In this document: positions 674 through 30,983 of the stretch, in pieces | Layout of the letters: the number at the start of each line of letters is the position of its first letter | Numbering within the stretch: the first letter of the stretch is position 1 | IMG/VR virus record: IMGVR_UViG_3300005613_000009 | Span: 32,001 to 96,000 of that record | Origin: a virus | Direction: 5' to 3' (one strand) | Length of the DNA stretch: 64,000 nucleotides | The notes under the pieces: generated by a model | What the model saw: the letters and a program-made list of their open reading frames with translations, nothing else | The model's database searches: none | Told to the model about the DNA's origin: nothing | Position numbers and translations under genes: made by a program

Positions 674-1117
674 TTATGCACGGCCTTTGGCCATTTGAGC
701 GGTATATGTAATACCAGTACCAGTAGTTCCGGTTACAGTTGTATAGATCCGAAGATACCGATAAACAGTATCAGAGAACATATTACTCCAGAACATCTTA
801 TAAAGTCCGGCTGCATCACTTCTGGTTGCCTTATTTGCACTTGAACCTCCAAGCTCTATAGTCGCCAGAGTAACAATAGGTGTGGCGAAAGTTGAACTTG
901 CGGAACCCTGTAGGGAAATCTCATACAGAATGTCACCAGTGGATGAAGTTCCATCAATTGCACTTACATAAATATCAACAAGCCCAGTTGTGTATCCGCC
1001 ACCTGTATCAAAAATTTTTGCGACAGCATCTACCGAGGCCAATGCACTTGATGTAACAGCGTAAGAATCTTTCATCTCACATTCTGCATCCCAGATTATT
1101 TTTCTATTATCTAACAT
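674..1117 (-). CDS. Capsid cement/decoration protein (Bbp16-like)
   Basis: 147 aa, Ser/Thr/Ala/Gly and beta-strand rich, AGGAG RBS, immediately downstream of the major capsid gene as in BPP-1-type head modules. Confidence 0.6.
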   Translation of the reverse strand: MLDNRKIIWDAECEMKDSYAVTSSALASVDAVAKIFDTGGGYTTGLVDIYVSAIDGTSSTGDILYEISLQGSASSTFATPIVTLATIELGGSSANKATRSDAAGLYKMFWSNMFSDTVYRYLRIYTTVTGTTGTGITYTAQMAKGRA

Positions 1118-1187: not shown

Positions 1188-2117
1188 TTACGCAGCTACA
1201 GTACCATCAATAACACTCCATAGTCTGGCTGCTGCTTTTGGACGCATGATAGACATAGTGATATACCATTCAACCCTGGTCCGAAAAACCGGTTTTTCAT
1301 CGATTTCACCCAAATCCCTAACGTCCATTTCGCCATTTTGAAGGCCAACAACCCCTGTATCATCGAGAGATACACAATAAATCGATGTACTATTCAAATG
1401 GGAATTACTGTTGGTTTCTGTAAACGGCATAATATCGGTATTGGTATTATCTTTATCAACAATAAGAATAGGCAAATCATTGAATTTGGTAACCCTATGT
1501 CCAAAAGAATCTTGATCATAAGTGATATATCCGCCGACAGAAGCACTTCTTGAAGCAGCACTTAATCGCCGTCTCATGGTTTTATTCATAATCAAATGGG
1601 TAGGATCCTCGACCGCATCAATCAACTCATCAAGTTTAGTCAATGAAAGTACAACGCCACTACTAGCACTGGCTGCAATCAATTGATCACCTGTACAACG
1701 TACTTGAAGACCGTCAAACCCTTTTGGATCAGAAGTTACATCACCTTTAATAAACTCTTTGGTCATTGCCAGTGATATTGCTTTGATCTTCATTGATTCC
1801 TGTGTTGCTCTTTGATCAATACCGCCTGTTTTTACCAACATAACGTCAACATCAAGGTCACCACCTGCAATAGCCAGAGACTCCGTAACCCTCTCAGTCT
1901 CACCAGTTCCTTCGGTATAACTCTCGTTTACGCCACGAAACCCGGCGTTCGGCAATGTTTTTTCACGGTTGAAAGACAAAGCATTTCCATCGATGTTGTC
2001 AAAAGGCATATACTGAAGGATATCGGAATTTTTCGCATAAAGTTCCATTACCGATGCCCTAAGTGCTTCATCTCTTCCAAGAGCAATTTTTGCTGATTCT
2101 ACTAATGTTAATGCCAT
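1188..2117 (-). CDS. Major capsid protein (HK97 fold, BPP-1 Bbp17-like)
   Basis: Start moved to ATG 2117 (AGGAGG RBS). MALTLVESAK...MPFDNIDGNALSFNREKTLP...FIKGD...FDGL...RTRVEWY matches the BPP-1-like capsid pattern. Confidence 0.88.
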   Translation of the reverse strand: MALTLVESAKIALGRDEALRASVMELYAKNSDILQYMPFDNIDGNALSFNREKTLPNAGFRGVNESYTEGTGETERVTESLAIAGGDLDVDVMLVKTGGIDQRATQESMKIKAISLAMTKEFIKGDVTSDPKGFDGLQVRCTGDQLIAASASSGVVLSLTKLDELIDAVEDPTHLIMNKTMRRRLSAASRSASVGGYITYDQDSFGHRVTKFNDLPILIVDKDNTNTDIMPFTETNSNSHLNSTSIYCVSLDDTGVVGLQNGEMDVRDLGEIDEKPVFRTRVEWYITMSIMRPKAAARLWSVIDGTVAA

Positions 2118-2264
2118 TGATAGTTCCTCCTGTTTCAGGTTAGAATCTGTTTGGACAAAAAAAAGGCCAAACAAGTTTATAAAAGATTAACTTTCTTTGG
2201 CCTTCACAGGAGGCTCGTACTTAACTTTTTTTGGCCCAGAAAAAATCGAATGTAGATAATGCAC

Positions 2265-3982: not shown

Positions 3983-5371
3983 ATGGCACTAACAGAACAA
4001 GAACAATCCAATTTAGCTAATGATTTCGCTTTTTCGCGATTGTTGTCTTATACAAGACTCCAATGGCAAAACTACATAATTGGACAACATCATGCTTTGA
4101 TTGCGAAATACCTTGAAGCAGTTGAGGCCGGAATAATTACTCGTTTAATGATTTGTATGCCACCAAGACATGGCAAAACCATGTTGACATCCGAATACTT
4201 TCCTGCCTGGTATCTTGGCCGAAACCCTGATCAACAGATTATCTTTTGTACTTATTCTCAAGAAAGGAGTGCTGATGTTGGAAAAAGAGTCAGGAATCAA
4301 ATGATTGATACCAGTAGATTCCAAGCTGTTTTTCCAAGATGCAAAGTTGCAAAAGACAGCAAGAGCGTTAGCAAGGTAGGAACCACAGACGGTGGAAATT
4401 TTTTCGCTGTAGGTATTGGTAGCGCTATTACGGGTCGTGGGGCGAATGTCCTAATTTTAGATGATGTTATAAAAGGCCAAGAAGAAGCAGAATCAAATCT
4501 TTTCCGTACAAAGATGAAAGACTGGTATCAAACTACTGCATATACACGACTAATGCCTAAAAATGCAGTAATTATTATCAATACCAGATGGCATTTGGAT
4601 GATCTTAGTGGTTGGCTACTCAGAGAACATCCGGATGAAAATTGGGTTGTTTTGAGTCTGCCAGCTATTGCAGAGAATGAAAATGATTTATTGAAACGTA
4701 GAGTTGGAGAACCACTTTGGCCTGAAGCCTATGACCTTAAACGATTGTTTAGTATAAAAAGTGCAATCGGAACCCGTGCATGGAATGCATTATATCAACA
4801 AAATCCGGTAGGTCGTGAAGGAAGTATTATTCAACTGGAATGGTTGAAACATTATACAAAAACACCTGATAAATTTAAACGTATTGTTCAAAGTTGGGAT
4901 ACAGCATTTAAACCGAAACAAGTCAATGATCCGTCTGTCTGCATTACATTCGGCGAGACTAAATCAAAGACCTATGTTCTGGATGTATTCAAGAAACGAC
5001 TTAAATATCCAGATTTGAAAAAAGCGGCAATAGCACAATACGAAAAGTGGGATCCTAATGTTATTATATGTGAAGACAAAGCAAGCGGACAAAGTTTGAT
5101 TCAAGATTTACAGGATAACTCAATGGTTCCAATTATTCCTATTTTACCTGAATCTGATAAATTAACACGCATGTCTGCTCAATCCGGTAAGATAGAAGCT
5201 GGTCGTTTATATCTTCCTGAAAAAGCATCATGGCTAGTCGATTATGAATCAGAATTATGTAATTTTCCGTTCGGACAGTTTGACGACCAAGTCGACGCTA
5301 CTAGTCAATATCTAAAATATTCATCAAAACCAAAATATAAACGATCAAAGAGGGCTTCATTCTGGAAATAA
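3983..5371 (+). CDS. terL: Terminase large subunit
   Basis: Walker A MPPRHGKT, Walker B LILDD, INTRWH motif, RNase H-like nuclease (QSWDTA...DDQVDATSQ). Confidence 0.96.
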   Translation: MALTEQEQSNLANDFAFSRLLSYTRLQWQNYIIGQHHALIAKYLEAVEAGIITRLMICMPPRHGKTMLTSEYFPAWYLGRNPDQQIIFCTYSQERSADVGKRVRNQMIDTSRFQAVFPRCKVAKDSKSVSKVGTTDGGNFFAVGIGSAITGRGANVLILDDVIKGQEEAESNLFRTKMKDWYQTTAYTRLMPKNAVIIINTRWHLDDLSGWLLREHPDENWVVLSLPAIAENENDLLKRRVGEPLWPEAYDLKRLFSIKSAIGTRAWNALYQQNPVGREGSIIQLEWLKHYTKTPDKFKRIVQSWDTAFKPKQVNDPSVCITFGETKSKTYVLDVFKKRLKYPDLKKAAIAQYEKWDPNVIICEDKASGQSLIQDLQDNSMVPIIPILPESDKLTRMSAQSGKIEAGRLYLPEKASWLVDYESELCNFPFGQFDDQVDATSQYLKYSSKPKYKRSKRASFWK

Positions 5372-5395: not shown

Positions 5396-6889
5396 ATGGA
5401 TCTTGACGAAATTAGAGAAACTCATCAAACTTATAAAGACAATATCGAAAATTGGAAACTTTGGCAAATCGCCTACATGGGAGGAAAGAATTTTATAGAT
5501 TATGCAATTAAACGACATAGCCGTGAATCTGTTAAAAATTTCAAGGCCCGAAAAGAAGAGGGTATTGTATTTAACTATAACAGAAGCATTGTAGATTTAT
5601 TTAGTTTTTATTTGACTGAAAAAGACGCTATGCGTGATATAGGTGCTTTGTCAAATGACAAACAGTGGAATATGTTCAGAAAAGATTGTGACCTGTATGG
5701 TACGGATTTTAATATTTTTATCAATAACGCCCAAAAATCAGCATCGATTTTTGGCAGCACAGGTGTATTGGTAGACAAATCAAATTATGGTCTTGCAAAT
5801 AAAGCAGAAGAAATTATCTCTAGTGTATATCCATACTGCAATCTTTATACCCTACCAAATATCTTAGATTGGTCGTTTGAAAGGGATACAATAACTAATC
5901 GGCCAACATTGACTTACCTTAAATTAAAAAATTACGACAACCGTTATTTTATTTGGAGAAAAGATAGTTGGGAAATTTGGGAAATTCCAATTACACCAAA
6001 TGGCCAAGAAAGTGACCCGGTGCTAGAAAGATCAGGCCCTAATATATTGGGCGAAATTCCTTTTTTTTGGTTTATTAATGTTAGGAGCCCTATTGATCCA
6101 TATTTCGGACTAAGTGATATTTCAGAGATTAGTCTAATTACAGCATCCATTATCAGGGATTTATCGTCTTTACAGGAAATTATAAAATTTGCTGGCTTTC
6201 CGATGATGCGAAAACCAATGTTGAAAGAAAGTGAAAGCGAAGAAGATATCGTAGGCCCTAGAGGTGTTTTGGAATTTGATCCTCTTTTAGGTGAGAATGG
6301 AAAACCAGACTGGTTGCTTTCGCCTGTGATGGAACCTGTTAGGGGTGGTTTAGAGTTTATCGAAAGGAAAATTGATGAGATATATGAAACAAGCCATATG
6401 AGCGGAATACATTCACTTGAGAAAAGTAGTGAAGCAAGATCCGGTGTAGCACTTAGATATCAATTTAGCCAGTTGACATCCGTACTCGGTGATAAAAGCG
6501 TAAACATGGTTGAAGCAGAATACGAAATTGTGAGGCTATGGTTGAAATGGCAAAATCAATCAGAACTATTCCCTCATATCCAGATTGCTCGAAGCAAACA
6601 ATTTAGTGTAGATGATATGGCACAAGACCTTCAAAATCTGGCATTAGCTGAGAAGATAGCAGTTAGTAAAAAGCTAAAACGAGAGATTCAAAAAGCAATC
6701 TCACGAAATGTTCTTCCAGATCTTTCAGATGATACAAGAGACGAAATTGACAAAGAAATTGATGTGGCATCATTTGACGAAAATAATGCTATAACGGAAG
6801 ATGAAAAAGATGAAAATGAAGAAAACAATGAATTGAAAAAACGGGTCAGTGATGAAGCTCCTGTTCCTAGGAAAGGATTATTGATTTAA
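5396..6889 (+). CDS. Portal protein (SPP1 gp6/DUF4055-like)
   Basis: 497 aa after terL; YFGLSDISEISL and SGVALRYQF motifs; acidic C-terminus. Confidence 0.85.
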   Translation: MDLDEIRETHQTYKDNIENWKLWQIAYMGGKNFIDYAIKRHSRESVKNFKARKEEGIVFNYNRSIVDLFSFYLTEKDAMRDIGALSNDKQWNMFRKDCDLYGTDFNIFINNAQKSASIFGSTGVLVDKSNYGLANKAEEIISSVYPYCNLYTLPNILDWSFERDTITNRPTLTYLKLKNYDNRYFIWRKDSWEIWEIPITPNGQESDPVLERSGPNILGEIPFFWFINVRSPIDPYFGLSDISEISLITASIIRDLSSLQEIIKFAGFPMMRKPMLKESESEEDIVGPRGVLEFDPLLGENGKPDWLLSPVMEPVRGGLEFIERKIDEIYETSHMSGIHSLEKSSEARSGVALRYQFSQLTSVLGDKSVNMVEAEYEIVRLWLKWQNQSELFPHIQIARSKQFSVDDMAQDLQNLALAEKIAVSKKLKREIQKAISRNVLPDLSDDTRDEIDKEIDVASFDENNAITEDEKDENEENNELKKRVSDEAPVPRKGLLI

Positions 6890-7974
6890 TCCTGCAACCA
6901 TTGACTCATTGTTAATTCTTGGCAACCATAGGTAAATCCTATATTTTCCATACATGTAATCATCGGTTGATTACTGATATTAGCTCCAAGGCTAACGGCT
7001 TTTATGCCTATTTCTGAATACAGTTTTTGACGATAACTTACTAATGCTGTTCCAACCATCATATTGCGGGTTTCGGGATTTACTATTAATCCCATACCTG
7101 ATCTGAGATTAAGTTTCAAACCTGTGTTTTCATGTAGGTTTTTATCGATTGCCATGATAATTGCACCTGCAAATTGACCTTTTATCTTTGCGATAATGAT
7201 TCGTCCAAGTTTCTGTTCATATACCTGCCTGAAACGATTGGCATAAAGTGCCATAGCATGTTTTGAATCAAAACCTTTTTCCGTCACAAATCGACTTGGA
7301 AACATTGATCCCTGATAAGCTTTTTCAATATCGTCTAGATCAGATTCAACAGCATCTGTAAATTGGATATGATAATATTCGTTTTCAACATCGAAAAATG
7401 ATTTAGTATACCCAATCATATTTACAAATCCTTCTGTATATTTATAACCAAACTCTTCTGCTGCACGAATTAAACCGATATTCTCTACAGGGATATTGAT
7501 TGAAATATATTTTAGATCCATTTCTTGTCTTGCAGTTTCGTTAATTTCCATAAACATTTTTTTCCCGGATTCATAATTGACGGAAATGTTTTTATCAACA
7601 CATGATAGGTTCGTAATGCTGCCAATAGGAACATTGAAATAATCCGACAGGAAATCAACTTTAGATAAAACAGATAGGAGATAATGTTTTTCTTCATATG
7701 TAGGGATAATTATATGTTTGTTTTTACATTGAATAATCTTATCAATTTCAGTTAATTCATTGTTTCTTATTTTATTCCACATATCTTCTGGAGCCTTCAT
7801 TCCCCGATACGGCAAATAAAGATTGTTATGTGTAAGATAAAGACATAATAGATAAACATTTGCGTAATAAGAAAACATTTCCATTTCTTCAATGTCCTTT
7901 ATCATCGATTTAATAGTATTAATAATAGATTTTACCAACTTATCGATTGTCTCCGTTGCCATGAATTTTGTCAC
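6886..7974 (-). CDS. GNAT-family N-acetyltransferase (WecD-like); true start probably internal (~7905 or 7884)
   Basis: C-terminal GNAT motifs (GLIVNPETRNMMVGTALV...SLGANISNQPMITCMENIGF); last gene of the sugar operon. Confidence 0.6.
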   Translation of the reverse strand: MTKFMATETIDKLVKSIINTIKSMIKDIEEMEMFSYYANVYLLCLYLTHNNLYLPYRGMKAPEDMWNKIRNNELTEIDKIIQCKNKHIIIPTYEEKHYLLSVLSKVDFLSDYFNVPIGSITNLSCVDKNISVNYESGKKMFMEINETARQEMDLKYISINIPVENIGLIRAAEEFGYKYTEGFVNMIGYTKSFFDVENEYYHIQFTDAVESDLDDIEKAYQGSMFPSRFVTEKGFDSKHAMALYANRFRQVYEQKLGRIIIAKIKGQFAGAIIMAIDKNLHENTGLKLNLRSGMGLIVNPETRNMMVGTALVSYRQKLYSEIGIKAVSLGANISNQPMITCMENIGFTYGCQELTMSQWLQD

Positions 7975-8269
7975 GTTCTTTACGGCTTATTAGTTTTTGG
8001 ATATTGGCTTCCGCGATCAGCTCTATTTTCAAATCGAGTTCTGAACAAATGGTTGCAATATACCACAATACGTCACCAATCTCTTTAGCAATTTCGGAAC
8101 GTTTTCTATGTGTTATAATCCCATCTTCATCTCGGATTACTTTTTTAACTTTTTCAGCTACTTCTCCTGCTTCGCCACAAAGTCCTAACACAGGATATAT
8201 GATATTATGTCCGATGTCTGGATAAACAGCCGTTTTCAAACACGCTTTTTGATATTCACTAAATGTCAT
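7940..8269 (-). CDS. mazG: MazG-like nucleotide pyrophosphohydrolase
   Basis: LGLCGEAGEVAEKVKK...EIGDVLWY...N..KL..R all-alpha NTP-PPase signature. Confidence 0.92.
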   Translation of the reverse strand: MTFSEYQKACLKTAVYPDIGHNIIYPVLGLCGEAGEVAEKVKKVIRDEDGIITHRKRSEIAKEIGDVLWYIATICSELDLKIELIAEANIQKLISRKERDKIHGNGDNR

Positions 8270-8562
8270 AATGATCTCCCCATAGATCTTAAATATGTTT
8301 CAACGGTTTCGATGTCTACAGACTCTTTAAGTTGTTGAGCTAAATTGTCTACATCTTTTTGTGGCGCAAGTAGGAAAAATAGTTTGTTTGTCAAATATTT
8401 TAATGTTATTTGTAACTGATCATATTCTTCATGTGAAAAATCTATTTCATTTTTCATATTGTTGTAATGCATGTCAATGTTTTCTAAGGTCTTTTTTGAC
8501 TTATCTATTTGATACAGTAATCTTGGGATTTGGTTTGTCCCCATTTTCAAACTCCTGACCAT
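8266..8562 (-). CDS. Hypothetical coiled-coil protein
   Basis: In-operon ORF; start/stop overlaps mazG. Confidence 0.6.
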   Translation of the reverse strand: MVRSLKMGTNQIPRLLYQIDKSKKTLENIDMHYNNMKNEIDFSHEEYDQLQITLKYLTNKLFFLLAPQKDVDNLAQQLKESVDIETVETYLRSMGRSL

Positions 8563-8583
8563 TCGCTCTTTTTCAATATAAAG

Positions 8584-8709
8584 TTAACAGCTACCCTTCC
8601 GACCGCCCTTTTTAGGTCCAGCACCTTTACCGGTACCACGACCTTTACCTCTACCTTCACCTGTCCGTGGGCCATTTCCTTTTGGCCCTCTCCCATCTCT
8701 ATTCGGCAT
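8584..8709 (-). CDS. 41-aa Gly/Arg/Lys-rich microprotein (DUF5320-like N-terminus)
   Basis: Absent from the track. Perfect AAGGAGGTG RBS; MPNRDGRGPKGNGPRTGEGRGKGRGTGKGAGPKKGGRKGSC. Confidence 0.75.
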   Translation of the reverse strand: MPNRDGRGPKGNGPRTGEGRGKGRGTGKGAGPKKGGRKGSC

Positions 8710-9241
8710 TATTACTCACCTCCTTTCGATATCTGATTAGTCTAGCATGATCCCCTACGTAAACACCGTAAGGTTCGCAGTTTTTTGAAATAATTGCCCC
8801 AGCTCCGACGAAAGCATGTTCGCCGATTGTTACACCAGCCAATATTAAAGAATGAGAACCGATTACTGCCCCTGATTTAATAAGAACCCATTTTTCTTCA
8901 GAGACTTCATCGTTGATTGCTTTTGGAAACTTCATTCGAGTTGTTGTTACATGAGATCCAATCCATACATTGTCTTCAATTTTACATGCTTGTCCTATCA
9001 TTGTACATCGCTTGATTCTGACATTATTACCAATTTTAACATAACCGCTTGTGTTTACATAATCGTCGAGTTTAACATTATTCCCGATTACAGTACCTGG
9101 CATAAGTTTTACAAAATCCATGATGAAAACATTACTACCAATTGTTACATCATTCATGATCTTACAAAAATTACCAATAAATACATTTGTCCCAATCTTG
9201 GTTTCTGGATGGATAATTGAATATCTTGATGTGTAATTCAA
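8699..9241 (-). CDS. Left-handed beta-helix N-acyltransferase (WbpD/WlbB-like)
   Basis: Hexapeptide repeats (KIGTNVFIG, TIGSNVFI, IEDNVWIG, VTIGEHAFVGAGA); TTG start at 9241 with AGGAG RBS. Confidence 0.85.
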   Translation of the reverse strand: MNYTSRYSIIHPETKIGTNVFIGNFCKIMNDVTIGSNVFIMDFVKLMPGTVIGNNVKLDDYVNTSGYVKIGNNVRIKRCTMIGQACKIEDNVWIGSHVTTTRMKFPKAINDEVSEEKWVLIKSGAVIGSHSLILAGVTIGEHAFVGAGAIISKNCEPYGVYVGDHARLIRYRKEVSNNAE

Positions 9242-9261
9242 TTGTTTTCTCCTGAAAATGT

Positions 9262-10023
9262 TTACTGATACTGTAACCACAAATACGTTACTATTTTATT
9301 GATTCTTTTACGAGCTTCATCCTGACTTTCAGGAATTTTATGGAAATACTGAGGAAACTCTTTTTTTCCGAATTCGATATAATTTGTAATGGCTGGTGGG
9401 CGTGATTTTGCATCAAGAATAAAATCAGGGATAAAAGATCGATAGGCTTCACGGAGAAATTTCTTGTTTGGATTAAGATGATACCCAAGAAAATATCTCC
9501 AGTCAAGATCATAAAAAGGCGCTTTTAATTCAAGATTGAGGTATTTATGGATAATCTTAAATGTAGGCATAATATAGATAATACTGTCTGCCCATGCTTG
9601 TAAATAGCTTTTGTTATCGTAACCACCAAATATTTCATCCGATCCTTCACCGATATAAATATTTTTGCATGCATCCCTTTTTGCAGCCTCTGCCAAAAAA
9701 TACGGCCAAACATTGAATCGTGGTTTTTCAAATAGTGGTAATATTTCTTGTAGCTTATTATAAAATCCATCAATCTTTACATTTTTATGGATGGATCCGA
9801 AATAGTTAGCAATCCTTTCTGCTTGCATACATTCATCTTTTTCAATACCGAAATCAGCAGTATATGTAAATATCTTTTTTCCTACATCTCTAGCTGCTTC
9901 CGTTACATGGTAAAGAATAATTGCAGAATCCATGCCACCCGAAAGATATACCGCAGTATTTTCACCAAATGTTTGATTAAACTTTATTTGCTTTTGTATT
10001 TTGTTCTGGATTTTGGTGTTCAT
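9262..10023 (-). CDS. Asparagine-synthetase-like ATP-dependent amidotransferase (synthetase domain only)
   Basis: PP-loop YLSGGMDS and GEGSDEIFGGY motifs; 253 aa with no N-terminal Ntn glutaminase domain. Confidence 0.8.
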   Translation of the reverse strand: MNTKIQNKIQKQIKFNQTFGENTAVYLSGGMDSAIILYHVTEAARDVGKKIFTYTADFGIEKDECMQAERIANYFGSIHKNVKIDGFYNKLQEILPLFEKPRFNVWPYFLAEAAKRDACKNIYIGEGSDEIFGGYDNKSYLQAWADSIIYIMPTFKIIHKYLNLELKAPFYDLDWRYFLGYHLNPNKKFLREAYRSFIPDFILDAKSRPPAITNYIEFGKKEFPQYFHKIPESQDEARKRINKIVTYLWLQYQ

Positions 10024-10044
10024 AGCACCCCCATTAAATAACTA

Positions 10045-11154
10045 TTAACATTGATTAATTGCCTGTTTGAGTAAATTAACAACAGTTTGTTGTTCTTCAT
10101 TCGTCATACCATAATAAAGTGGCAAAGCAAGACTTTGACTGTATGCTTTCCGCGAGTATTTTACAAATGTTGGAAACGTATAAAACTTAATCATATCGGT
10201 TCCAATTTGAACTTCGATACCGTTGTCCCTCATGTAAGCCATAATTTTATTGCGATTTTTTAATTGTATACAAAATGTCTGGTATGAATGTTTTCCATTT
10301 GATGTTGTCTCTTGAAATTTAACTCCTTTTATATTCTTCAGTTTTTCCCGATAGTTTTCCTGTAGCATAATACGATAATTGATAAGCCGGTCCAGGATAT
10401 CCATCTGAGCTAACCCGATACTCGCTTGGATATCACTAAGTTTGTAATTGCTACCGAACAACACATTCTCGCCAATTATACAGTCTTTGAAGTTTTTTAG
10501 TTTTGAGATCTGTTCTGCTATTTTATCTGAATTTGTTGTAATCATGCCGCCTTCTCCGGTTGTAACTATTTTTCTTGGATGAAAACTGAATACCGAAATA
10601 TCAGCAAGAGACCCAGTCATAAGGCCATTGTATTCAGAACCAAGACCACAAGCAGCATCTTCAATAATACCAATGCCAAATTTGTTCTTTATTCTGTTTA
10701 ATTCGTAATAATTAAGTGGATTGCCAAAAAGCGATACAGGAAGGATAGCGACGGTTTCTTTTGTAATAGCCTTTTCAATCTCAGCGTAATCAATTAATAA
10801 AGTCTTTGGATTAATATCAACCACTATAGGTTTACATCCTGTACCCAATATCGCTAAAATTGTAGCAGGATGTGTAAATGCAGGAACAATAATTTTTGCG
10901 TTGAAAGGATCTTTCCCCATATTTAGGCATAAGACCTTTATTGCTGTAGATAATCCAATAGTACAATTTGGAACCGATATAGCATGCTTAACGTCACAGT
11001 AACCAATAACACTTTTTTCGAATAGTTTATTAACAGGTCCTTCTGTTAAATGATAACTGTCAAGAACCTTGATAACATTGTTTTTCATATCATAACTGAC
11101 AAATGGTTTTGTCAATGGAATAGTGTATTGATTTTTATAGTTTTTTGCTTTCAT
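10045..11154 (-). CDS. DegT/DnrJ/EryC1/StrS PLP-dependent nucleotide-sugar aminotransferase (WbpE-like)
   Basis: IIEDAACGLG and FSFHPRKIVTTGEGGMITT (PLP lysine) motifs. Confidence 0.93.
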   Translation of the reverse strand: MKAKNYKNQYTIPLTKPFVSYDMKNNVIKVLDSYHLTEGPVNKLFEKSVIGYCDVKHAISVPNCTIGLSTAIKVLCLNMGKDPFNAKIIVPAFTHPATILAILGTGCKPIVVDINPKTLLIDYAEIEKAITKETVAILPVSLFGNPLNYYELNRIKNKFGIGIIEDAACGLGSEYNGLMTGSLADISVFSFHPRKIVTTGEGGMITTNSDKIAEQISKLKNFKDCIIGENVLFGSNYKLSDIQASIGLAQMDILDRLINYRIMLQENYREKLKNIKGVKFQETTSNGKHSYQTFCIQLKNRNKIMAYMRDNGIEVQIGTDMIKFYTFPTFVKYSRKAYSQSLALPLYYGMTNEEQQTVVNLLKQAINQC

Positions 11155-12034
11155 AAATAGTTACTCTGCTCCTGTCTTCAGAATAAGGTTGATTAGTTAG
11201 AATATCAAAGACTTCTTTTTTGAATAAACGTAAATCGTAAGGATCCAGTTTTTTATTTTTTAACAAAAATGTAATTAACATTGGAAAGATTGAAATTCCA
11301 TATGAATTGATAAATTTATATCCATTTCCTTTGAGAACAGCTTTCATGAATTTTTTTTCAATAACTTGCGGCGAATTGCATTTTTCAGATCCTACTAAAT
11401 AATCGCTTATTTTGTTAAATTTGTTTATATGTATGAAACTTTCTATATTACCATTTAATAACGCACGAATCATAGTAGCTGTTTTGTTTGGTTCGACATT
11501 CATTAAATAACCATCTTGTTTAAGATATTGCCTTATCTTATTAAGACTAAAACCTATGTTATTTGAATAGAATAAACATTCACAGGCCCAAATAATATCA
11601 CAAGTATCTGGTTTGATAGGGATCCTTGAAATATCTGAGTGGATTAATGTTATTCTATTTTTATAATTATTTCTTTTTTTGCTAATTTCTAAATATGACT
11701 GTAAATCCTGTAAATGTTTTAAAACAATATCAACCGCAATAACATGTGCATCTGTATTATTTAAAAACCATTTTGTGAATTGGCCATTACCACATCCGGC
11801 ATCGAGAATAAAATCACATTTTTTGCCTGGTAATAAATTTCGTTTAAGACAATTCTTAATTGCTTTTTGTTCGTAATCAATATATATTTTATATTTTGAA
11901 TTAACATTAAACGCATATAGATCTTTATTTATATCGTTCTCACAAAAATAAATTCCATTTTTTTGCGAGACACCATTTTTCAAAAAGTTGTGGTTTTCCA
12001 TGGTATTATTTAATATCCACCTTGAAACGCCCAA
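11135..12034 (-). CDS. Class I SAM-dependent methyltransferase
   Basis: ILDAGCGNG motif I, AVDI motif II, YLKQDG motif. Confidence 0.85.
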   Translation of the reverse strand: MGVSRWILNNTMENHNFLKNGVSQKNGIYFCENDINKDLYAFNVNSKYKIYIDYEQKAIKNCLKRNLLPGKKCDFILDAGCGNGQFTKWFLNNTDAHVIAVDIVLKHLQDLQSYLEISKKRNNYKNRITLIHSDISRIPIKPDTCDIIWACECLFYSNNIGFSLNKIRQYLKQDGYLMNVEPNKTATMIRALLNGNIESFIHINKFNKISDYLVGSEKCNSPQVIEKKFMKAVLKGNGYKFINSYGISIFPMLITFLLKNKKLDPYDLRLFKKEVFDILTNQPYSEDRSRVTIYESKKL

Positions 12035-13026
12035 TATGCCGGGATATCGTTAATATCCAGTTCTGGGTGTGTATCTAAAAAACTATCAGGTTGTAGTATA
12101 AACTTTGATAAATGATACCATTGCATTGAAACCCGTTTTGGATGAAACCATTTATTAACATACTGTTGGTTATAAATAATTGGAACAGTCAATGGGTTAT
12201 GTACGAAGTAACGGACTTCTCGTTCGATATCCTGCGGAGCAGTATTCATAATGGGTAATTTAGGATAATGAGACAGATAAAATTTATTTACATAAGATAT
12301 CGTTGGAATACCTATTGACATAGCATTTATTGCATGTTGACTAAGCACACCAGTATGTAATTGATCAATATATAAATTTGTTCTATGTAATCTATCGATA
12401 TCCTCATTGAAATCTACCGATGGATCTCTGTCACAAAATTCTTTTATGACTTTCAGGTACTTATCTAATTCAGGTTCATCCGGAGTTGAAAAATGTGAAA
12501 TAGTAAAATTTACCGGCTTTCTCCATATCTTTTGTGGCATAACCATAAGATGTGGAATAGTTGTCATACTTTGGACAAGACATCGAAAAAGACTCCAATC
12601 AGCATCTACGGATGCCCAAAAACGGATTGCCATTTGATTTCTGAAATAATTACTTGCATTATCTCTTAGATGATTACCTGAAAAAATATAGATAAAATTG
12701 CTTGACCTGGATGCCAGACGGCCACAAAAAGGACATGGCATTCTTCGTGTACGATAAGAAAGATAATCTTCGATAACCGTACCACAATAACAACATTTGC
12801 CATTAGACGTATTTAAAATCAAATGGTTAAATAAATTTTTACAATTGTTGTCACTAGAATTGATACCATTCCAAATGAAATAGAAATCACAATCTTCAAT
12901 ATTTTGATCATTATAATTTGTAACAAGTTTACATGATTCAATCGGTGTGTATTTCTCCAAACTTTCTCTTAGATATCTTACGATTTGCAAATAAGTTTTG
13001 TCTAAGCATACAATAGCTGTTTTCAT
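12010..13026 (-). CDS. GT-B-fold glycosyltransferase paralog with a CxxC...CxxC zinc-finger insertion
   Basis: C-terminal IDQLHTGVLSQHAINAMSIGIPTI aligns with its two neighbours; CCYCG...CPFCG insertion. Confidence 0.6.
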   Translation of the reverse strand: MKTAIVCLDKTYLQIVRYLRESLEKYTPIESCKLVTNYNDQNIEDCDFYFIWNGINSSDNNCKNLFNHLILNTSNGKCCYCGTVIEDYLSYRTRRMPCPFCGRLASRSSNFIYIFSGNHLRDNASNYFRNQMAIRFWASVDADWSLFRCLVQSMTTIPHLMVMPQKIWRKPVNFTISHFSTPDEPELDKYLKVIKEFCDRDPSVDFNEDIDRLHRTNLYIDQLHTGVLSQHAINAMSIGIPTISYVNKFYLSHYPKLPIMNTAPQDIEREVRYFVHNPLTVPIIYNQQYVNKWFHPKRVSMQWYHLSKFILQPDSFLDTHPELDINDIPAYWAFQGGY

Positions 13027-13075
13027 TGTGGCCTCTTATTTATACTTTAGTGTTCTTTTGTATTTTTCTGTTAAA

Positions 13076-14089
13076 CTATGTACTTATTTGTTCCCTTTCC
13101 CAAAACTCCGGAGATGGATATTTATTATCTATCTCCGGATGCATTATAAATTCAATCAAATTAATCCACATAGGAATACGTTTTTCTGCACTAAATGTAT
13201 CGACACAATACTTTCGAGTTTTTTGCCCAATGTGGATCCGTTCTTCAGGGTGTGTGATTAACCATTCGAGGTTCTCTTTGATATTATGTTTATCAGTATT
13301 GATGATAGGAGTATCAGGATAAATCGATAGATAATAGTCGCAAAGACGATTTAAGACAGGAATACCAAAGCACATTGCTTCTACAGTATTTTGACCATGG
13401 TCAAAGAAATCGATTGAATCGATAAAAATATCCGATTTTTGTTTTTGTTCCATAACTTGATCCCATGAGATACCACCCTCACCAGAAGAAAAGCACCCGG
13501 TATAAGACCATTCGATATTATAAATTTTTGCCAAGTCGTTGATCACGGCTTCAATATATTTTGTTCCTTTGATTTTCTGATTAGTTGGTGAATGATAAAT
13601 AACTAAAGTATCCGAATCAGAATTTGTATTCGTTAATGGTTTCCATCGGTTAGTATCAATAATATGTGTATTATGGTGAACTGATTGAACTAAACAGCGT
13701 GTCATGCTAAAATCGTATGCAGTTGCAGACCAGTAATAGCCGTTTTTCAATTGGTGGCCAAAAATGGCATTTGCTATATTACGAATATCTGATCCACTAT
13801 GACGAATTAAGTGATTTTGTACATTTATTTTTTTAGAAATTATATCTGATAATTGTCTGGGGATACCTTGTGCGATACAGAAAAAATCGGCATTATCGAT
13901 AAGGCTATTAATTTCATCAATTTGTTCTTTTTTCGTCATTTCAGACAAAACGATGTCTGTATTATATCCGAATGGATGATAGTTCTCAGTAATACTTCTA
14001 GCCGTATGATTAGTATATTCGTTTACAGCTTTTGACATAAGATATTGAGCGCCACCCCAATCATTTGGTGATAAAAACAAAATATTCAT
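13076..14089 (-). CDS. GT-B (GT4-like) glycosyltransferase
   Basis: MNILFLSPNDWGG start; IYHSPTNQKIKGT; SDIFIDS...GQNTVEAMCFGIPVL; RIHIGQKTRKY. Confidence 0.8.
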   Translation of the reverse strand: MNILFLSPNDWGGAQYLMSKAVNEYTNHTARSITENYHPFGYNTDIVLSEMTKKEQIDEINSLIDNADFFCIAQGIPRQLSDIISKKINVQNHLIRHSGSDIRNIANAIFGHQLKNGYYWSATAYDFSMTRCLVQSVHHNTHIIDTNRWKPLTNTNSDSDTLVIYHSPTNQKIKGTKYIEAVINDLAKIYNIEWSYTGCFSSGEGGISWDQVMEQKQKSDIFIDSIDFFDHGQNTVEAMCFGIPVLNRLCDYYLSIYPDTPIINTDKHNIKENLEWLITHPEERIHIGQKTRKYCVDTFSAEKRIPMWINLIEFIMHPEIDNKYPSPEFWEREQIST

Positions 14090-14102
14090 AGTGTTATACC
14101 TG

Positions 14103-14879
14103 CTATCTATTAACAACTTCTGTTGATCCTACAGTTTTCGTACCCCATTGTTCACAGGCTGAACAAATTTCATCAGGATAATTATCCCTGATTTGCTGAT
14201 ATCCATCCCCATTCCAGACTTCTTGGATTGAATTATCTCGAACGTTCATAGGTTTGTCTGTCATCCAATTATGGCAACATCTTGATACATTACCTGTATA
14301 GTCTATTGTAATATCTGTTACCAATTTTGGACAGAACCTACGATTTTCTCTTCCACCGATTGATCCCAGTTGACCATTCGATGAATGCTTATCGTATATC
14401 CGGATAACATCTACATATTTTCTCATATCTTGTATCTTTGATTCTGTAGTTTCTCCCTTGACAACGGATATCTGGATCCGAGGTTTGCTGTTTTTTCGAT
14501 ACTTATTAAGAAGTTTAACAGCCTTTACGGCATCTTCCGTATGATAACTAATAGATACAAAATCAAACAATAAAACCATATCAAGATATTTTTCAACTAA
14601 GATACCATTAGTGGCAAACTGTATTTCTTTAAACTTATGGATAGTATATGCCAACATCGGTTTGACCATTGGATGGAGCAGACTTTCTCCCCGCCAAAAC
14701 GGAACAAGCGTAATGTTTTTATGGGCTATTTCATCAATGATCTGTTTCCATAGATAAAAATTCATAAAACCGACCGGATCTGTCATAAATCTTCGAGGAC
14801 AAACTGAACAGTTTAAATTGCATGCATTTGTAATTTCTATGGTAACACGACTTGGAAACATAGTAGTTGTATCTTTCAT
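14103..14879 (-). CDS. Radical SAM enzyme with SPASM/twitch domain
   Basis: TNACNLNCSVCPR (CxxxCxxC), GESLLHP, and C-terminal CPK...G.VSRCC...C..C. Confidence 0.92.
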   Translation of the reverse strand: MKDTTTMFPSRVTIEITNACNLNCSVCPRRFMTDPVGFMNFYLWKQIIDEIAHKNITLVPFWRGESLLHPMVKPMLAYTIHKFKEIQFATNGILVEKYLDMVLLFDFVSISYHTEDAVKAVKLLNKYRKNSKPRIQISVVKGETTESKIQDMRKYVDVIRIYDKHSSNGQLGSIGGRENRRFCPKLVTDITIDYTGNVSRCCHNWMTDKPMNVRDNSIQEVWNGDGYQQIRDNYPDEICSACEQWGTKTVGSTEVVNR

Positions 14880-14921
14880 GGTAATTTTAAACCTTTGAAC
14901 AAATTAAAAATGTTTTCTTTG

Positions 14922-15137
14922 TTAATCCTTAGCCAATCTTGCTTCGTTATTTCTAGCTTTAATTATTTGGTTCTGGGCCTTTCTTACACGATACTGGGCT
15001 GCAGCCTCTGAACATCCCATAACAAGACCAATTTGGTTGTAAGTGATTCCACTGATTCTTAACAATAGAGCCCTGAAACTATCTTCATGAATAACTACCC
15101 TATTTGCAGAGAACACCCTTTGTTTTTGTTTTGCCAT
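14922..15137 (-). CDS. Small HTH DNA-binding protein (sigma region-4-like)
   Basis: SGITYNQIGLVMGCSEAAAQYRVRKA HTH pattern. Confidence 0.6.
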   Translation of the reverse strand: MAKQKQRVFSANRVVIHEDSFRALLLRISGITYNQIGLVMGCSEAAAQYRVRKAQNQIIKARNNEARLAKD

Positions 15138-15140
15138 ATG

Positions 15141-16145
15141 TTATTTACTCTTTTGAGAAAACTTAACAATCCTATTTCCGTTAATGATATAATCGTATAA
15201 CCAAATATATTGATCAACAGCCTTAATCGGATCGCAATTTTGCCTAACCCACATTCTACCTTTCTTTCCAATTGATAAAATTTCACTACGATTTTCAAGG
15301 AAATACACGATTACGTCTTTGAGTGTTTTTTCCGTAACCGAAACAACAGGATTGTCCGGATAACAACTCATAACCAGATTGCTGACGGAACACAGGACAA
15401 CCTGTTCCATTGCCATAGATTCGATAGCAGACAATGCAAAACGGCCAACAGATATTTGATCAAACAACATATGTGCTTGTTGTTTTTGTACGAGGCATTC
15501 CTCGTTTGAAAGGCCTTCAAGTAGGATGAGTTCAATCGGATAATCTTTTTGCAAATCATCTATTATCGATAGAAACAAATCTGTTTTTTTGAAAGCTCTG
15601 TTTGTAGGTGAGTGAACTATTTTGATAGGTGTGTTAGAATCTAAAATGTTTGAAAATGATATTTCATGCCATGGACAAACTTTGTCCACATCAAACATAT
15701 CTGGGAAGTGATAAAACATAGGACCTGCATCTTCGAGCATTGTTGCATCTACCCAACTAATACCTTTAATTCCGGTCTGTTCATGCATATTTTTGATTTG
15801 AGGGCGATTATTCCTGAGATACGATCCATAATATTGAATGACACAATTCTTGGAATTCAAAATATTTTCAAATTTAACATCTCCAAAATTAATAGGTTGC
15901 CGTCCAATATGAAAAAAATCACCTTTTTTGACAACATCCTGTGCTGCTTTAATTGCTTTAGGATCTGCAATCTTTGTAGTCGCATCTTTGACTAAAACGA
16001 TATCTGTGTCATAGTTTAGATAATCCCCAACAATAATAATACACCTGGCTTTATGAATCGTATATTCATTAATTAACCTGGCAAGCATTGTTAAATTACC
16101 TGCAATATCATAATCACTGCATATAACAATATTCATAGGGTGCAT
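15141..16145 (-). CDS. GT-B (GT4-like) glycosyltransferase
   Basis: Paralog of 13076-14089 (INEYT.H.AR, Y.TDIVL, IVHSPTN, HMLFDQ...SAIESMAMEQVV). Confidence 0.8.
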   Translation of the reverse strand: MHPMNIVICSDYDIAGNLTMLARLINEYTIHKARCIIIVGDYLNYDTDIVLVKDATTKIADPKAIKAAQDVVKKGDFFHIGRQPINFGDVKFENILNSKNCVIQYYGSYLRNNRPQIKNMHEQTGIKGISWVDATMLEDAGPMFYHFPDMFDVDKVCPWHEISFSNILDSNTPIKIVHSPTNRAFKKTDLFLSIIDDLQKDYPIELILLEGLSNEECLVQKQQAHMLFDQISVGRFALSAIESMAMEQVVLCSVSNLVMSCYPDNPVVSVTEKTLKDVIVYFLENRSEILSIGKKGRMWVRQNCDPIKAVDQYIWLYDYIINGNRIVKFSQKSK

Positions 16146-16147
16146 AT

Positions 16148-16543
16148 CTAATTTTTACCTTTCAAATGTTTTATATTTTTCTCTCTTAAATAATTGCGGA
16201 TTGTTGTTTCGCTGACACCCAATACCCTATGCATTTTTTTTATAGTCATTTTATTGATTTGTTCTTTTGATAAAGTACGACAAAGATCTCGTTTAGGTGT
16301 TCTTATATTATTGGCACCACCATGTTTATGTGATCTTTTTATGTTATAGCCATCCAAGCGGCGGTATATATATATCCTGGAAACACCTAGTTGGTTTGCT
16401 ATTTGACTTGCGGTAAATTTTTTTATCAAAGTAGACAACATTTCTTGTTCGCTTTGAAAATTAGTATTGTACATATTGTTATACATAACAATATATTCTT
16501 CCCAGTTAATTATAGTTGGATATTTGTTTTCCCTCGATACCAT
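16148..16543 (-). CDS. Protein with two HTH-like segments
   Basis: ASQIANQLGVSRIYIYRRL and MHRVLGVSETTIRNYLRE. Confidence 0.6.
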   Translation of the reverse strand: MVSRENKYPTIINWEEYIVMYNNMYNTNFQSEQEMLSTLIKKFTASQIANQLGVSRIYIYRRLDGYNIKRSHKHGGANNIRTPKRDLCRTLSKEQINKMTIKKMHRVLGVSETTIRNYLREKNIKHLKGKN

Positions 16544-16562
16544 TTAACCATTACTTTTTTTA

Positions 16563-17438
16563 TCAAGTTGGGTCATTAGCTTGATGAGTCCCTATATGTC
16601 TTAGTTGTGAACACAACGTAACGGCAGGTAGTACTTCATCTATGCCAAATCCATTACCATCTATAATTTTTTGGTAACTAAGAGTATGGAGATCTTTAAA
16701 ACCTTTAGACAACTCAAATTCTTTTCCGTTTAGGGTTAATAAACGTTTCGGAAGATAATTTTTTTCGATGCTCAATATAACCTTTATTACAAACATACCG
16801 ATTCTGAATTGTCCTATGGCTTTTCTTGGTTCTGTATACCATGATAAGACAGAACAAGAACCACCAAATAACCATAGTAGCAAATCAAACAAATGAATCC
16901 CTATATTGGTAGCAATTCCACCTGATTTTTCTATATTTGTTTTCCATGAATAATCGTACCAACAACCACGTGGCGTATAATATTCAAGTGATGCTACTTT
17001 TGCCAAACAATCAATATTGTCTGATATTTCTTGTTTTACCTGTAAAGCGGTTTCACTCAAACGAAGCTGTAAAATATTCCAAACTTTGCGACCACTTGAT
17101 AATTCAAGCTCTTTTAATTTGTCTATATTCTTTGGATTTAGTGTTAGAGGCTTTTCACAAATGGCATTAGCCCCAATTCGTAATGCAAACCTGCAATGTG
17201 CGTTATGGAGATAATTAGGTGAACAAATCGAGACATAATCGATTTTTTGATCCGAACAAAATCTATCAAACCGTTCAAACTCACGAAAATATAAAGCATC
17301 TGGAAAATATGAATCAAGGATGCCTACATTGTCATGAGGATCTATGCAGGCAATCAATTCACCGCCTACATCTTTGATGGCTTTCATATGTCGTTTTGCG
17401 ACAAATCCAGCAGCACCAATTAAAACAAATTTTTTCAC
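16563..17438 (-). CDS. wbpB: Gfo/Idh/MocA oxidoreductase, UDP-GlcNAcA 3-dehydrogenase (WbpB-like)
   Basis: MKKFVLIGAAGFVAKRHMKAIKD...DPHDNVGILDSYFP...FERFDRF...SICSPNYLH...ICEKPL...GGIATNIGIHLFD closely follows the WbpB/WlbA pattern. Confidence 0.88.
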   Translation of the reverse strand: MKKFVLIGAAGFVAKRHMKAIKDVGGELIACIDPHDNVGILDSYFPDALYFREFERFDRFCSDQKIDYVSICSPNYLHNAHCRFALRIGANAICEKPLTLNPKNIDKLKELELSSGRKVWNILQLRLSETALQVKQEISDNIDCLAKVASLEYYTPRGCWYDYSWKTNIEKSGGIATNIGIHLFDLLLWLFGGSCSVLSWYTEPRKAIGQFRIGMFVIKVILSIEKNYLPKRLLTLNGKEFELSKGFKDLHTLSYQKIIDGNGFGIDEVLPAVTLCSQLRHIGTHQANDPT

Positions 17439-17450
17439 TTAAATATCTCC

Positions 17451-17618
17451 TTACATTTTTTTATTTAAAGATGTGGTAGATGCATTTTTGAAATAAAATA
17501 TCACCGTTTTTTTAAGGAATTCAGGAACCGTTATTTCTGCGTCTACCGCTGCTTTGCGTATTAGCTTATGCAGATCCATCGGCACATTTTTCCATAAAAT
17601 TGATTTCGTGTGAGTCAT
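17451..17618 (-). CDS. 55-aa ribbon-helix-helix (Arc/MetJ-like) regulator
   Basis: Absent from the track. MTHTKSILWKNVPMDLHKLIRKAAVDAEITVPEFLKKTVIFYF...; first gene behind a sigma70 promoter. Confidence 0.7.
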   Translation of the reverse strand: MTHTKSILWKNVPMDLHKLIRKAAVDAEITVPEFLKKTVIFYFKNASTTSLNKKM

Positions 17619-17621
17619 GAT

Positions 17622-17680
17622 TTAATCACCCATAGCGTAAATTTGAAGTCACTTTATACGCTATGAGTGATTTTGTCAAG
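17622..17680 (-). promoter_or_regulatory. Sigma70-type promoter of the glycan operon with an overlapping inverted repeat
   Basis: TTGACA-17-TAAAGT on the minus strand; imperfect inverted repeat aatcac-ccatagcgtaaa / tttatacgctatga-gtgatt. Confidence 0.7.
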
Positions 17681-30857: not shown

Positions 30858-30983
30858 TATATGCACCTATTTTAATGACTATTTTTTTTATTGGGATCAC
30901 CTACTTTTCAGTAGGCAATCCCTATTGAAGGAGGATTTCACAAAAAAAACAGATAAAAAAAAGAAAAAATACCATTTTACTGC

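Follow-up and report, generated by a model that had tools for sequence, protein, structure and literature searches.

A phage-borne amino-sugar and glycosyltransferase cluster beside a portal gene, and its possible role in virion glycosylation

Introduction

What does a tailed phage do with a set of genes that look as if they belonged to a bacterial cell envelope, and which molecule would receive the sugar that they make? This question is raised by a cluster of minus-strand genes at positions 6886-17438 of a 64,000-nucleotide stretch of DNA (bases 32001-96000 of the 119,981-bp IMG/VR virus record IMGVR_UViG_3300005613_000009, whose completeness is estimated at 81%), which we call the window and to which coordinates without a prefix refer. 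An original prediction, made from the sequence alone, had described the cluster as a self-contained operon with its own promoter and ribbon-helix-helix (RHH) regulator, encoding WbpB-, WbpE- and WbpD-like enzymes for a rare amino sugar, several tailoring enzymes and three glycosyltransferases (GTs) that act on a cytoplasmic acceptor, either virion protein or DNA. To our knowledge, glycosylated phage particles are documented only in a few mycobacteriophages, in which the glycans affect antibody recognition. Here, we show that the cluster is viral and encodes the core of a WbpB-type pathway, and we describe two further GT genes that follow the capsid gene. Glycosylation of a virion protein is the best reading of the cluster and these two genes together, and we give it about an even chance of being correct.

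Results

The core of the cluster consists of a WbpB-like oxidoreductase, a DegT-family aminotransferase and a left-handed beta-helix (LbH) acyltransferase (Table 1). The oxidoreductase resembles WlbA/WbpB over its full length and far above other Gfo/Idh/MocA enzymes: it scores 252 bits against PDB entry 3o9z (E 6.7e-74) and 226 bits against 3oa2 (E 4e-66), and at most 39 bits against all other Gfo/Idh/MocA oxidoreductases in the PDB. The nearest solved relatives of the LbH protein are all NDP-sugar C3 N-acetyltransferases (7s43, 4mzu, QdtC 3fs8 and WlbB 3mqg), which places it in the QdtC/WlbB sugar 3-N-acetyltransferase class. Thus, the WbpB-like and WbpD-like assignments of the original prediction are both borne out. 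The third assignment, a DegT/WbpE-like aminotransferase, is right as to the family; as to the closest relative it is doubtful: the enzyme scores 156-164 bits against 7b0m and QdtB and 125 bits against WbpE, and judged by these alignments it appears to resemble the QdtB type more than WbpE. Hardly any of 50,697 GenBank phage records contains a WbpB-type gene, and we found no description of such a phage pathway in the published literature.

The pathway is incomplete in the record. No UDP-sugar 6-dehydrogenase (WbpA; UDPG_MGDP_dh), 2-epimerase (WbpI/WlbD; Epimerase_2) or sugar nucleotidyltransferase was found in the 120-kb record, so that the absence of WbpA, noticed earlier for the window, extends to the whole record. 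For the same reason the term "self-contained" has to be given up, all the more as the GTs that likely prime the glycan lie outside the operon. The closest cellular relatives of the WbpB-like protein (47-50% identity; Saprospiraceae and Sphingopyxis) have UDP-sugar 6-dehydrogenase genes adjacent or within a few kb, and because of this neighbourhood UDP-GlcNAcA, provided by the host or by a gene in the missing sequence, is the likely substrate. The product of the pathway is likely gluco-configured. The record also contains no Wzx flippase, Wzy polymerase, GtrA, priming transferase or integrase, in keeping with the predicted absence of O-antigen assembly and undecaprenyl-priming genes. Transmembrane (TM) prediction gave no convincing helix in any cluster protein, GTs included, as had been claimed for the GTs, and no polytopic membrane protein was found in the whole record.

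The three GTs of the cluster, here called paralogs A, B and C, are related to each other (E 7e-30, 1e-17 and 6e-6), and none of them matches any Pfam family, Glycos_transf_1 included. The profile of the family gives weak GT4 matches in the PDB (E 0.01), and PF00534 is found in 3 of the 12 homologs of paralog B. A structural model of paralog B, built from 14 sequences (pLDDT 85.7, pTM 0.85), was matched by Foldseek to BshA, PimA, PglA and MshA at E ~1e-9 with probability 1.0. The predicted structure thereby confirms a GT4-type GT-B fold for paralog B, and paralogs A and C are assigned to GT-B through their paralogy to B; with these provisos the prediction of three GT-B glycosyltransferases holds. 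Paralog A contains at residues ~60-105 an insert with two CxxC pairs (CxxC...CxxC, zinc-ribbon-like) that has no counterpart in B or C. A gene of this GT-B family lies at most ~7 kb from a terminase gene in four distant viral loci. A distant member is also encoded on a fragment of a bacterial chromosome (L091:1281-3328), next to a FemAB/Acetyltransf_6-type GNAT and to GT4, GT2 and GT9 genes; the same fragment carries a protein with a type IX secretion system (T9SS) sorting domain, which suggests Bacteroidota. Since this distant member sits among GT4, GT2 and GT9 genes, the family seems to be of cell-envelope origin.

A second group of GT genes is located in the head module, where the major capsid protein (MCP) gene is followed by the gene of a 147-aa head protein (p147) and by two genes of GT2 type, GT2b and GT2a, with Glycos_transf_2 matches of E 1e-18 and 1e-16. 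TPR_19 and TPR_14 matches occur in GT2a, all below the cut-off, and there are none in GT2b. All of the nearest solved relatives of GT2a glycosylate proteins or peptides (GmaR, E 8e-27; SunS, E 3e-24; and one SunS-related enzyme), with the alignment to GmaR and SunS covering the catalytic half only, and by this similarity GT2a would belong to the GmaR/SunS-type class of protein glycosyltransferases. GmaR consists of a GT domain followed by TPR and puts GlcNAc on Listeria flagellin (PMC9638930).

The position of the GT2 genes is conserved. Full-length GT2 relatives are present on 23 IMG/VR contigs, 17 of which have the order MCP (55-70% identical), p147 and one or two GT2 genes, and p147 lies beside the MCP gene on 18 contigs. 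Cultured relatives (the Caulobacter phage CcrBL9 group and the Microcystis phage Mwe-JY26) have the MCP gene and a gene for a ~146-aa minor capsid protein, and no GT at this place; p147 matches its positional equivalent in CcrBL9, gp124, marginally (E 0.012). The amino-sugar pathway is physically linked to a head-module GT most clearly on viral contig L120 (IMGVR_UViG_3300045008_000273), in which homologs of the WbpB-like protein (47%) and of the LbH protein (32%) follow the GT2 gene within the structural module and precede the genes for head-tail and tube proteins. On this contig the GT2 gene, an 82-aa ORF, the WbpB homolog and the LbH gene stand in a row (L120:7980-11485), and the product of a 257-aa ORF upstream (7016-7789) has no sequence match in the PDB. 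Of the relatives in the same lineage, G012 and G013 have genes for a paralog-C-like GT, an LbH protein and a DegT protein, and G011 (86% complete) has a GT2 gene and neither DegT nor the GT-B family. Because G012 and G013 carry sugar genes and G011 only the GT2 gene, the GT2 gene appears to form the core and the sugar cluster an accessory cassette.

As to acceptor sites, the tail tube protein has an insert rich in Ser, Thr and Pro (S/T/P-rich), and p147 has T/G/S-rich stretches; both are suggestive only. S/T-rich stretches were also noticed in a 2128-aa tail-region protein (G000:C1:3426-9812, minus strand) and in its 577-aa neighbour. This protein is one of two giant tail-region ORF products outside the window, the other having 4039 aa (G000:C1:11545-23664, minus strand).

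The cluster is phage DNA, as follows from its even GC content (0.31-0.35 across the cluster and its flanks), its portal and replication neighbours and its recurrence on viral contigs. On L014 the genes for paralog C (59% identity), the radical SAM enzyme, paralog B and paralog A have kept their order; L017 has paralog B, paralog A and DegT in order, and L015 has paralog B, paralog A and the methyltransferase, with the paralog A orthologs coming after paralog B on L014-L017. The synteny search on related viral contigs thus supports a phage-encoded cluster. Homologs of the GNAT, radical SAM and GT-B proteins occur together on the same contigs of 12.9, 18.8 and 58 kb, and contigs whose proteins are 97-100% identical also carry pieces of the cluster. 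A Megablast search of GenBank phages with the cluster as query gave no match.

The predicted tailoring enzymes and MazG were all recovered, with one restriction: the Asn-synthase-like protein is a PP-loop ATPase domain only. It matches TIGR01536 at profile positions 236-373, i.e., the synthetase half, and contains no glutaminase domain. The short radical SAM enzyme has a CX3CX2C motif and invariant Cys residues at 20/24/27 and 183/201/239/242, and its model (pLDDT 87.8) has as its best fold match BtrN (4m7t, E 2e-9), followed by SuiB, BlsE, SpeY, EpeE and DesII, several of which act on sugars. BtrN is a Twitch radical SAM dehydrogenase of an aminocyclitol, and the model indicates a Twitch enzyme of the BtrN kind for the phage protein. 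In the replication arm, outside the window, a further radical SAM protein of larger size (465 aa, Radical_SAM and Radical_SAM_N2) is encoded (G000:C1:109216-110613, minus strand, equal to L005:3217-4614). The GNAT protein matches a bacterial family of ~320-aa GNAT proteins in structure over its full length (TM 0.8-0.9, a structural-alignment score). Its N-terminal 230 residues had been considered as a novel fusion, an idea that we rejected as the whole protein fits this common family.

The cluster ORFs overlap or are closely packed, and the cluster converges on the portal gene, with which its stop region overlaps at 6886-6889; the picture of one minus-strand operon wedged against the portal gene is therefore correct. 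The portal gene has the large terminase gene as its upstream neighbour, and the other flank of the cluster consists of DUF3150, AAA and DnaC-like replication genes. For the regulation of the operon the evidence is divided. Both the promoter-like site and the 55-aa ORF taken for an RHH regulator exist, but promoter-like sites are not enriched in the cluster region (55 versus 62 in shuffled sequence), and a sequence search of the PDB with the 55-aa protein gave no match up to E 10; a promoter and RHH regulator belonging to the cluster are plausible but putative. Two helix-turn-helix (HTH) proteins and a 98-aa ORF inside the cluster had been missing from the earlier description.

Some 45 kb from the GT genes, the window encodes a divergent protein of the thymidylate synthase (TS) family. 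We aligned this TS-like protein with its viral relatives and with canonical ThyA sequences encoded at bacterial loci, and we use the residue numbers of E. coli ThyA. The catalytic Cys, D169 and N177 are kept and L143 is replaced by Asp. In the clade to which the protein belongs (~243 aa; relatives L098-L103), the L143 position is Asp or Asn and His147 is replaced by Leu, and both the phosphate-binding Arg-Arg pair and the long tail at the C-terminus have been lost. By the diagnostics of PMC13326640, the signature reads as dUMP-type and hydroxymethylase-like, not as that of a 5-hydroxy-dCMP synthase. The clade may be a dUMP hydroxymethylase or, because the Arg-Arg pair is lost, may use another substrate altogether. 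On L103, a TS-like gene and a homolog of the cluster's MazG (36% identical) are ~700 bp apart (L103:6-485 and 1183-1386), a neighbourhood hinting that MazG is a partner of the TS-like enzyme in nucleotide metabolism and not of the sugar enzymes. The window also encodes a DNA methyltransferase, and the phage probably methylates its own DNA, whatever other change the DNA carries. A Pfam scan that covered part of the record's genes identified no DNA polymerase and no dNMP kinase.

Table 1. Coordinates of the features discussed in the text, in the numbering of the window unless a prefix is given
Feature	Coordinates	Strand	Evidence
GT2b, N-terminal part	1-589, continues past the window edge	-	Glycos_transf_2
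p147, 147-aa head protein, candidate acceptor	674-1117	-	positional equivalent of the CcrBL9 "minor capsid protein"
Major capsid protein (MCP)	1188-2174	-	PF20911 GP7, E 2e-12; ~50% identical to CcrBL9 and Mwe-JY26 capsids
Large terminase	3983-5371		
Portal protein	5396-6889	+	phrog_145, E 7e-50
Two-domain GNAT acyltransferase	6886-7974	-	Acetyltransf_1, residues 252-347
MazG-like nucleoside triphosphate pyrophosphohydrolase	7940-8269	-	PF03819, E 1e-10; phrog_229, E 1e-37
98-aa protein	8266-8562	-	weak matches only
LbH sugar N-acetyltransferase, QdtC/WlbB class	8699-9280	-	Hexapep, E 3e-32
Asn-synthase-like PP-loop ATPase domain, 253 aa	9262-10023	-	PF00733, E 2e-20, profile positions 20-141 only
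DegT/DnrJ/EryC1 sugar aminotransferase	10045-11154	-	Pfam, E 1.3e-83
Class I S-adenosylmethionine (SAM) methyltransferase	11135-12034	-	Methyltransf_11, _25, _31
GT-B paralog A	12010-13026	-	E 1e-17 to paralog B
GT-B paralog B, GT4-like glycosyltransferase	13076-14116	-	model and Foldseek
Short radical SAM enzyme, one auxiliary-cluster (Twitch-like) domain	14103-14879	-	Radical_SAM and SPASM
71-aa sigma-70 region-4-like HTH protein	14922-15137	-	weak Sigma70_r4_2, E 6e-4, below cut-off
GT-B paralog C	15141-16145	-	27% identical to paralog B over full length, E 7e-30
131-aa protein with two HTH motifs	16148-16543	-	many HTH families, marginal or below cut-off; PHROG DNA-binding families
WbpB/WlbA-type UDP-GlcNAcA 3-dehydrogenase homolog	16563-17438	-	PDB 3o9z, 3oa2; GFO_IDH_MocA N- and C-terminal domains
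55-aa ORF, putative RHH regulator	17451-17618	-	ORF present
Promoter-like site TTGACA-17-TAAAGT	17679-17651	-	top-scoring minus-strand site, 10 of 12
DNA methyltransferase	29775-30866	-	DUF6094/N6_Mtase-type
Divergent TS-like protein	62146-62877	-	PF00303, 50 bits
GT2a, second GT2 copy, after GT2b	L003:9998-11329, outside the window		Glycos_transf_2 and TPR

Discussion

The scheme that we infer for substrate, order of steps and acceptor, with the GT2 and GT-B enzymes acting on the same glycan, would run as follows. The host would supply UDP-GlcNAcA, or UDP-GlcNAc together with a 6-dehydrogenase. The WbpB-like enzyme would oxidise C3, the DegT enzyme would transaminate it and the LbH enzyme would N-acylate the product, giving a gluco-configured UDP-2,3-diacylamido-2,3-dideoxy-glucuronate, whose carboxylate the PP-loop Asn-synthase-like enzyme would amidate, or on which it would form an amidine. 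The methyltransferase, the GNAT and the BtrN-like radical SAM enzyme may tailor the sugar further. In the cytoplasm, the GmaR/SunS-type GT2 enzymes would put the first sugar on a structural protein, the candidates being p147, the capsid protein and, through its S/T/P-rich insert, the tail tube, and the three soluble GT4-like paralogs would extend the glycan.

The predicted cytoplasmic acceptor thus gains support, in the form of a virion protein, from the GT2 genes and from the gene order on L120. The argument from missing TM helices on which that prediction had leaned is weak, because the closest folds (PglA, PimA and BshA) are soluble or peripheral proteins, some of which act on lipid-linked acceptors. 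Several observations also weigh against a glycosylated virion protein. Some 7 kb separate the GT-B cluster from the GT2 genes, which belong to another transcription unit, and G011, with its GT2 gene and without DegT and the GT-B family, shows that the two parts can exist separately. Distant members of the GT-B family are found in bacterial GT clusters for lipopolysaccharide (LPS) or cell wall, and the hydroxymethylase-like TS homolog and the MazG inside the cluster fit DNA modification. The S/T-rich stretches are modest and the record is incomplete. The sequence itself singles out none of protein, DNA and host glycan as the acceptor.

If DNA were the acceptor, the TS-like protein would provide 5-hydroxymethyluracil in place of thymine, MazG would remove a competing dNTP, and the GT-B paralogs would build on this base a glycan with the phage's amino sugar as a shield against restriction. 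Several findings agree with such a function: the TS-like protein is far from canonical ThyA and has a hydroxymethylase-type signature, MazG lies within the cluster and has a homolog beside a TS-like gene on L103, two HTH proteins are encoded inside the cluster, and the phage DNA glycosyltransferase HY126 (9iqz) is at rank 27 among the fold matches of paralog B. There are also phages that produce nucleotide sugars and glycosylate DNA with several GT-B enzymes (RB69, DLP3 and RL38JI; PMC13326640), and mono- to trisaccharides occur on 5-hydroxymethylcytosine (bioRxiv 10.1101/2023.12.21.572611). However, the genes of a DNA hypermodification pathway usually lie together (Pyle et al., section 9, bioRxiv version), and here the TS-like gene is far from the GTs. 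Nor do the two families occur together: near-complete viral records that contain the GT family lack a TS-family gene, and no GT family member is present in records that encode close TS-like relatives. The record at hand was found to contain no dUTPase, ThyX or C5-methyltransferase. In addition, the GT-B paralogs are acidic to neutral (pI 5.6-7.2), and the substrate of the TS-like protein is itself uncertain given the lost Arg-Arg pair. A search for Tet_JBP gave no match, which is uninformative as control genomes gave none either. We therefore consider glycosylated DNA possible but doubtful. The joint occurrence of TS and GT genes on the metagenome loci L058, L063, L090, L091 and L093 had been examined as a link to DNA modification and was rejected as coincidence, L091 being a bacterial chromosome with canonical ThyA (331 bits) and LPS-type GTs. 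The TS-like clade may be the sign of a DNA modification.

The phage sugar and the GT4-like enzymes could instead feed a lipid-linked O-antigen, capsule or glycoprotein pathway of the host and so remodel its envelope, for a purpose that may be, e.g., a block to superinfection or altered properties of the cell surface. A WbpB/E/D-type pathway with GT4 enzymes is the classic machinery of cell-envelope glycans; PglA and PimA, among the closest folds, use lipid-linked acceptors without having TM helices; distant relatives in the GT-B family have GT4, GT2 and GT9 genes as neighbours on a bacterial chromosome; and the phage depends on the host for precursors. We nonetheless regard this function as unlikely, in view of a record that has no priming transferase, flippase, polymerase or integrase, of accompanying GT2 genes that are of the protein- or peptide-glycosylating type and fixed in the head module, and of the WbpB and LbH genes inside the structural module of L120.

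Two acceptors might also be served side by side, with the DNA carrying 5-hydroxymethyluracil from the TS homolog and, built on this base by the three GT-B paralogs, a multi-residue glycan that includes a phage-made, amidated and methylated 2,3-diacylamido uronic acid, and with the GT2 enzymes separately glycosylating the capsid. This arrangement, which we hold to be distinctly unlikely, would if true amount to a base-J-like hypermodification of unprecedented chemical complexity.

That the cluster enzymes make a free glycoside, a small molecule of the aminocyclitol or aminoglycoside kind, is highly improbable. The enzyme set does resemble those of the butirosin and spectinomycin pathways, and BtrN and SpeY are among the best fold matches of the radical SAM enzyme. 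Against this, the oxidoreductase scores 252 bits to WlbA/WbpB versus ~38 bits to inositol dehydrogenases, and the strength of the WlbA match led us to reject an aminocyclitol pathway; moreover, the acetyltransferase is of the NDP-sugar 3-N-acetyltransferase class, cellular WbpB relatives stand beside UDP-sugar dehydrogenase genes, and the cluster was found to encode neither a cyclase nor an inosose synthase. Finally, that host chromosomal DNA for LPS or exopolysaccharide was misassembled into the phage contig, as the cellular appearance of the gene content might make one think, has a negligible chance and was rejected on account of the uniform GC over cluster and flanks, the position between portal and replication genes on one contig, and the orthologous pieces carried by other viral contigs and by contigs whose proteins are 97-100% identical.

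Returning to virion-protein glycosylation, a lineage that coats its virion, be it the capsid, a decoration protein or the tail tube, with a rare acidic diamino sugar tailored by itself would imply that virion glycosylation is widespread in environmental phages. It would further imply a conserved core, a GmaR/SunS-type GT behind the capsid gene, combined with swappable sugar cassettes, and it would yield a small soluble enzyme set with which UDP-2,3-diacylamido uronic acids can be made and transferred.

Among known systems, giant viruses (Megavirinae and chlorovirus) encode rare amino-sugar pathways and GTs that decorate their own particle. These are eukaryotic viruses with other sugars and other enzymes, whereas the cluster described here is that of a tailed phage. 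The Wbp/Wlb pathways of bacteria (P. aeruginosa WbpA/B/E/D/I, Bordetella WlbA-D and Thermus WlbA 3o9z) lead to UDP-2,3-diacetamido-2,3-dideoxy-uronic acids. They have the 3-dehydrogenase, the DegT aminotransferase and the 3-N-acetyltransferase in common with the phage, and an Asn-synthase-like amidotransferase of WbpG type also accompanies bacterial pathways of this type. In contrast to them, the phage record has no WbpA and no WbpI, the 2-epimerase responsible for the manno configuration in the complete ManNAc3NAcA pathway, its aminotransferase is probably closer to the QdtB type than to WbpE, and the pathway is phage-borne, without genes for lipid carrier, flippase or polymerase and with a radical SAM enzyme, a methyltransferase and a GNAT added.

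Phage DNA glycosylation (the alpha- and beta-GT of T4; arabinosyl-5-hydroxycytosine, or arabinosyl-5hoC, in RB69 and DLP3; RL38JI; 5mYOX-GT of Pyle et al.) likewise involves nucleotide-sugar enzymes and several soluble GTs, together with a TS-family enzyme from the same genome. In the present phage, 45 kb separate the TS homolog from the GTs, the two families are not found together in other records, and the homolog bears what reads as a dUMP-type signature without the D169N change of 5hoC synthases. GmaR of Listeria and the glycocin S-glycosyltransferases SunS (SPbeta prophage) and ThuS share with GT2a the catalytic match and, in the case of GmaR, TPR after the GT; unlike in these systems, the catalytic half of GT2a alone aligns and the genes are in a phage head operon.

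Virion glycosylation itself is already known; a system with a WbpB-type pathway has not been seen in cultured phages, as GenBank phage records hardly contain such genes. In mycobacteriophages, GTs are thought or have been shown to O-glycosylate subunits of the capsid and tail tube (Freeman et al. 2023, as cited in PMC12619734); going by that citation, virion glycosylation has been demonstrated there, whereas here it is predicted from genes. Compared with the mycobacteriophages, the present phage is of an unrelated lineage, with an MCP that shares ~50% identity with its counterparts in the CcrBL9 group and Mwe-JY26, and it adds a rare-sugar pathway of its own and five GTs, of which the two GT2 enzymes, apparently of the GmaR/SunS clade, are encoded directly behind the capsid gene.

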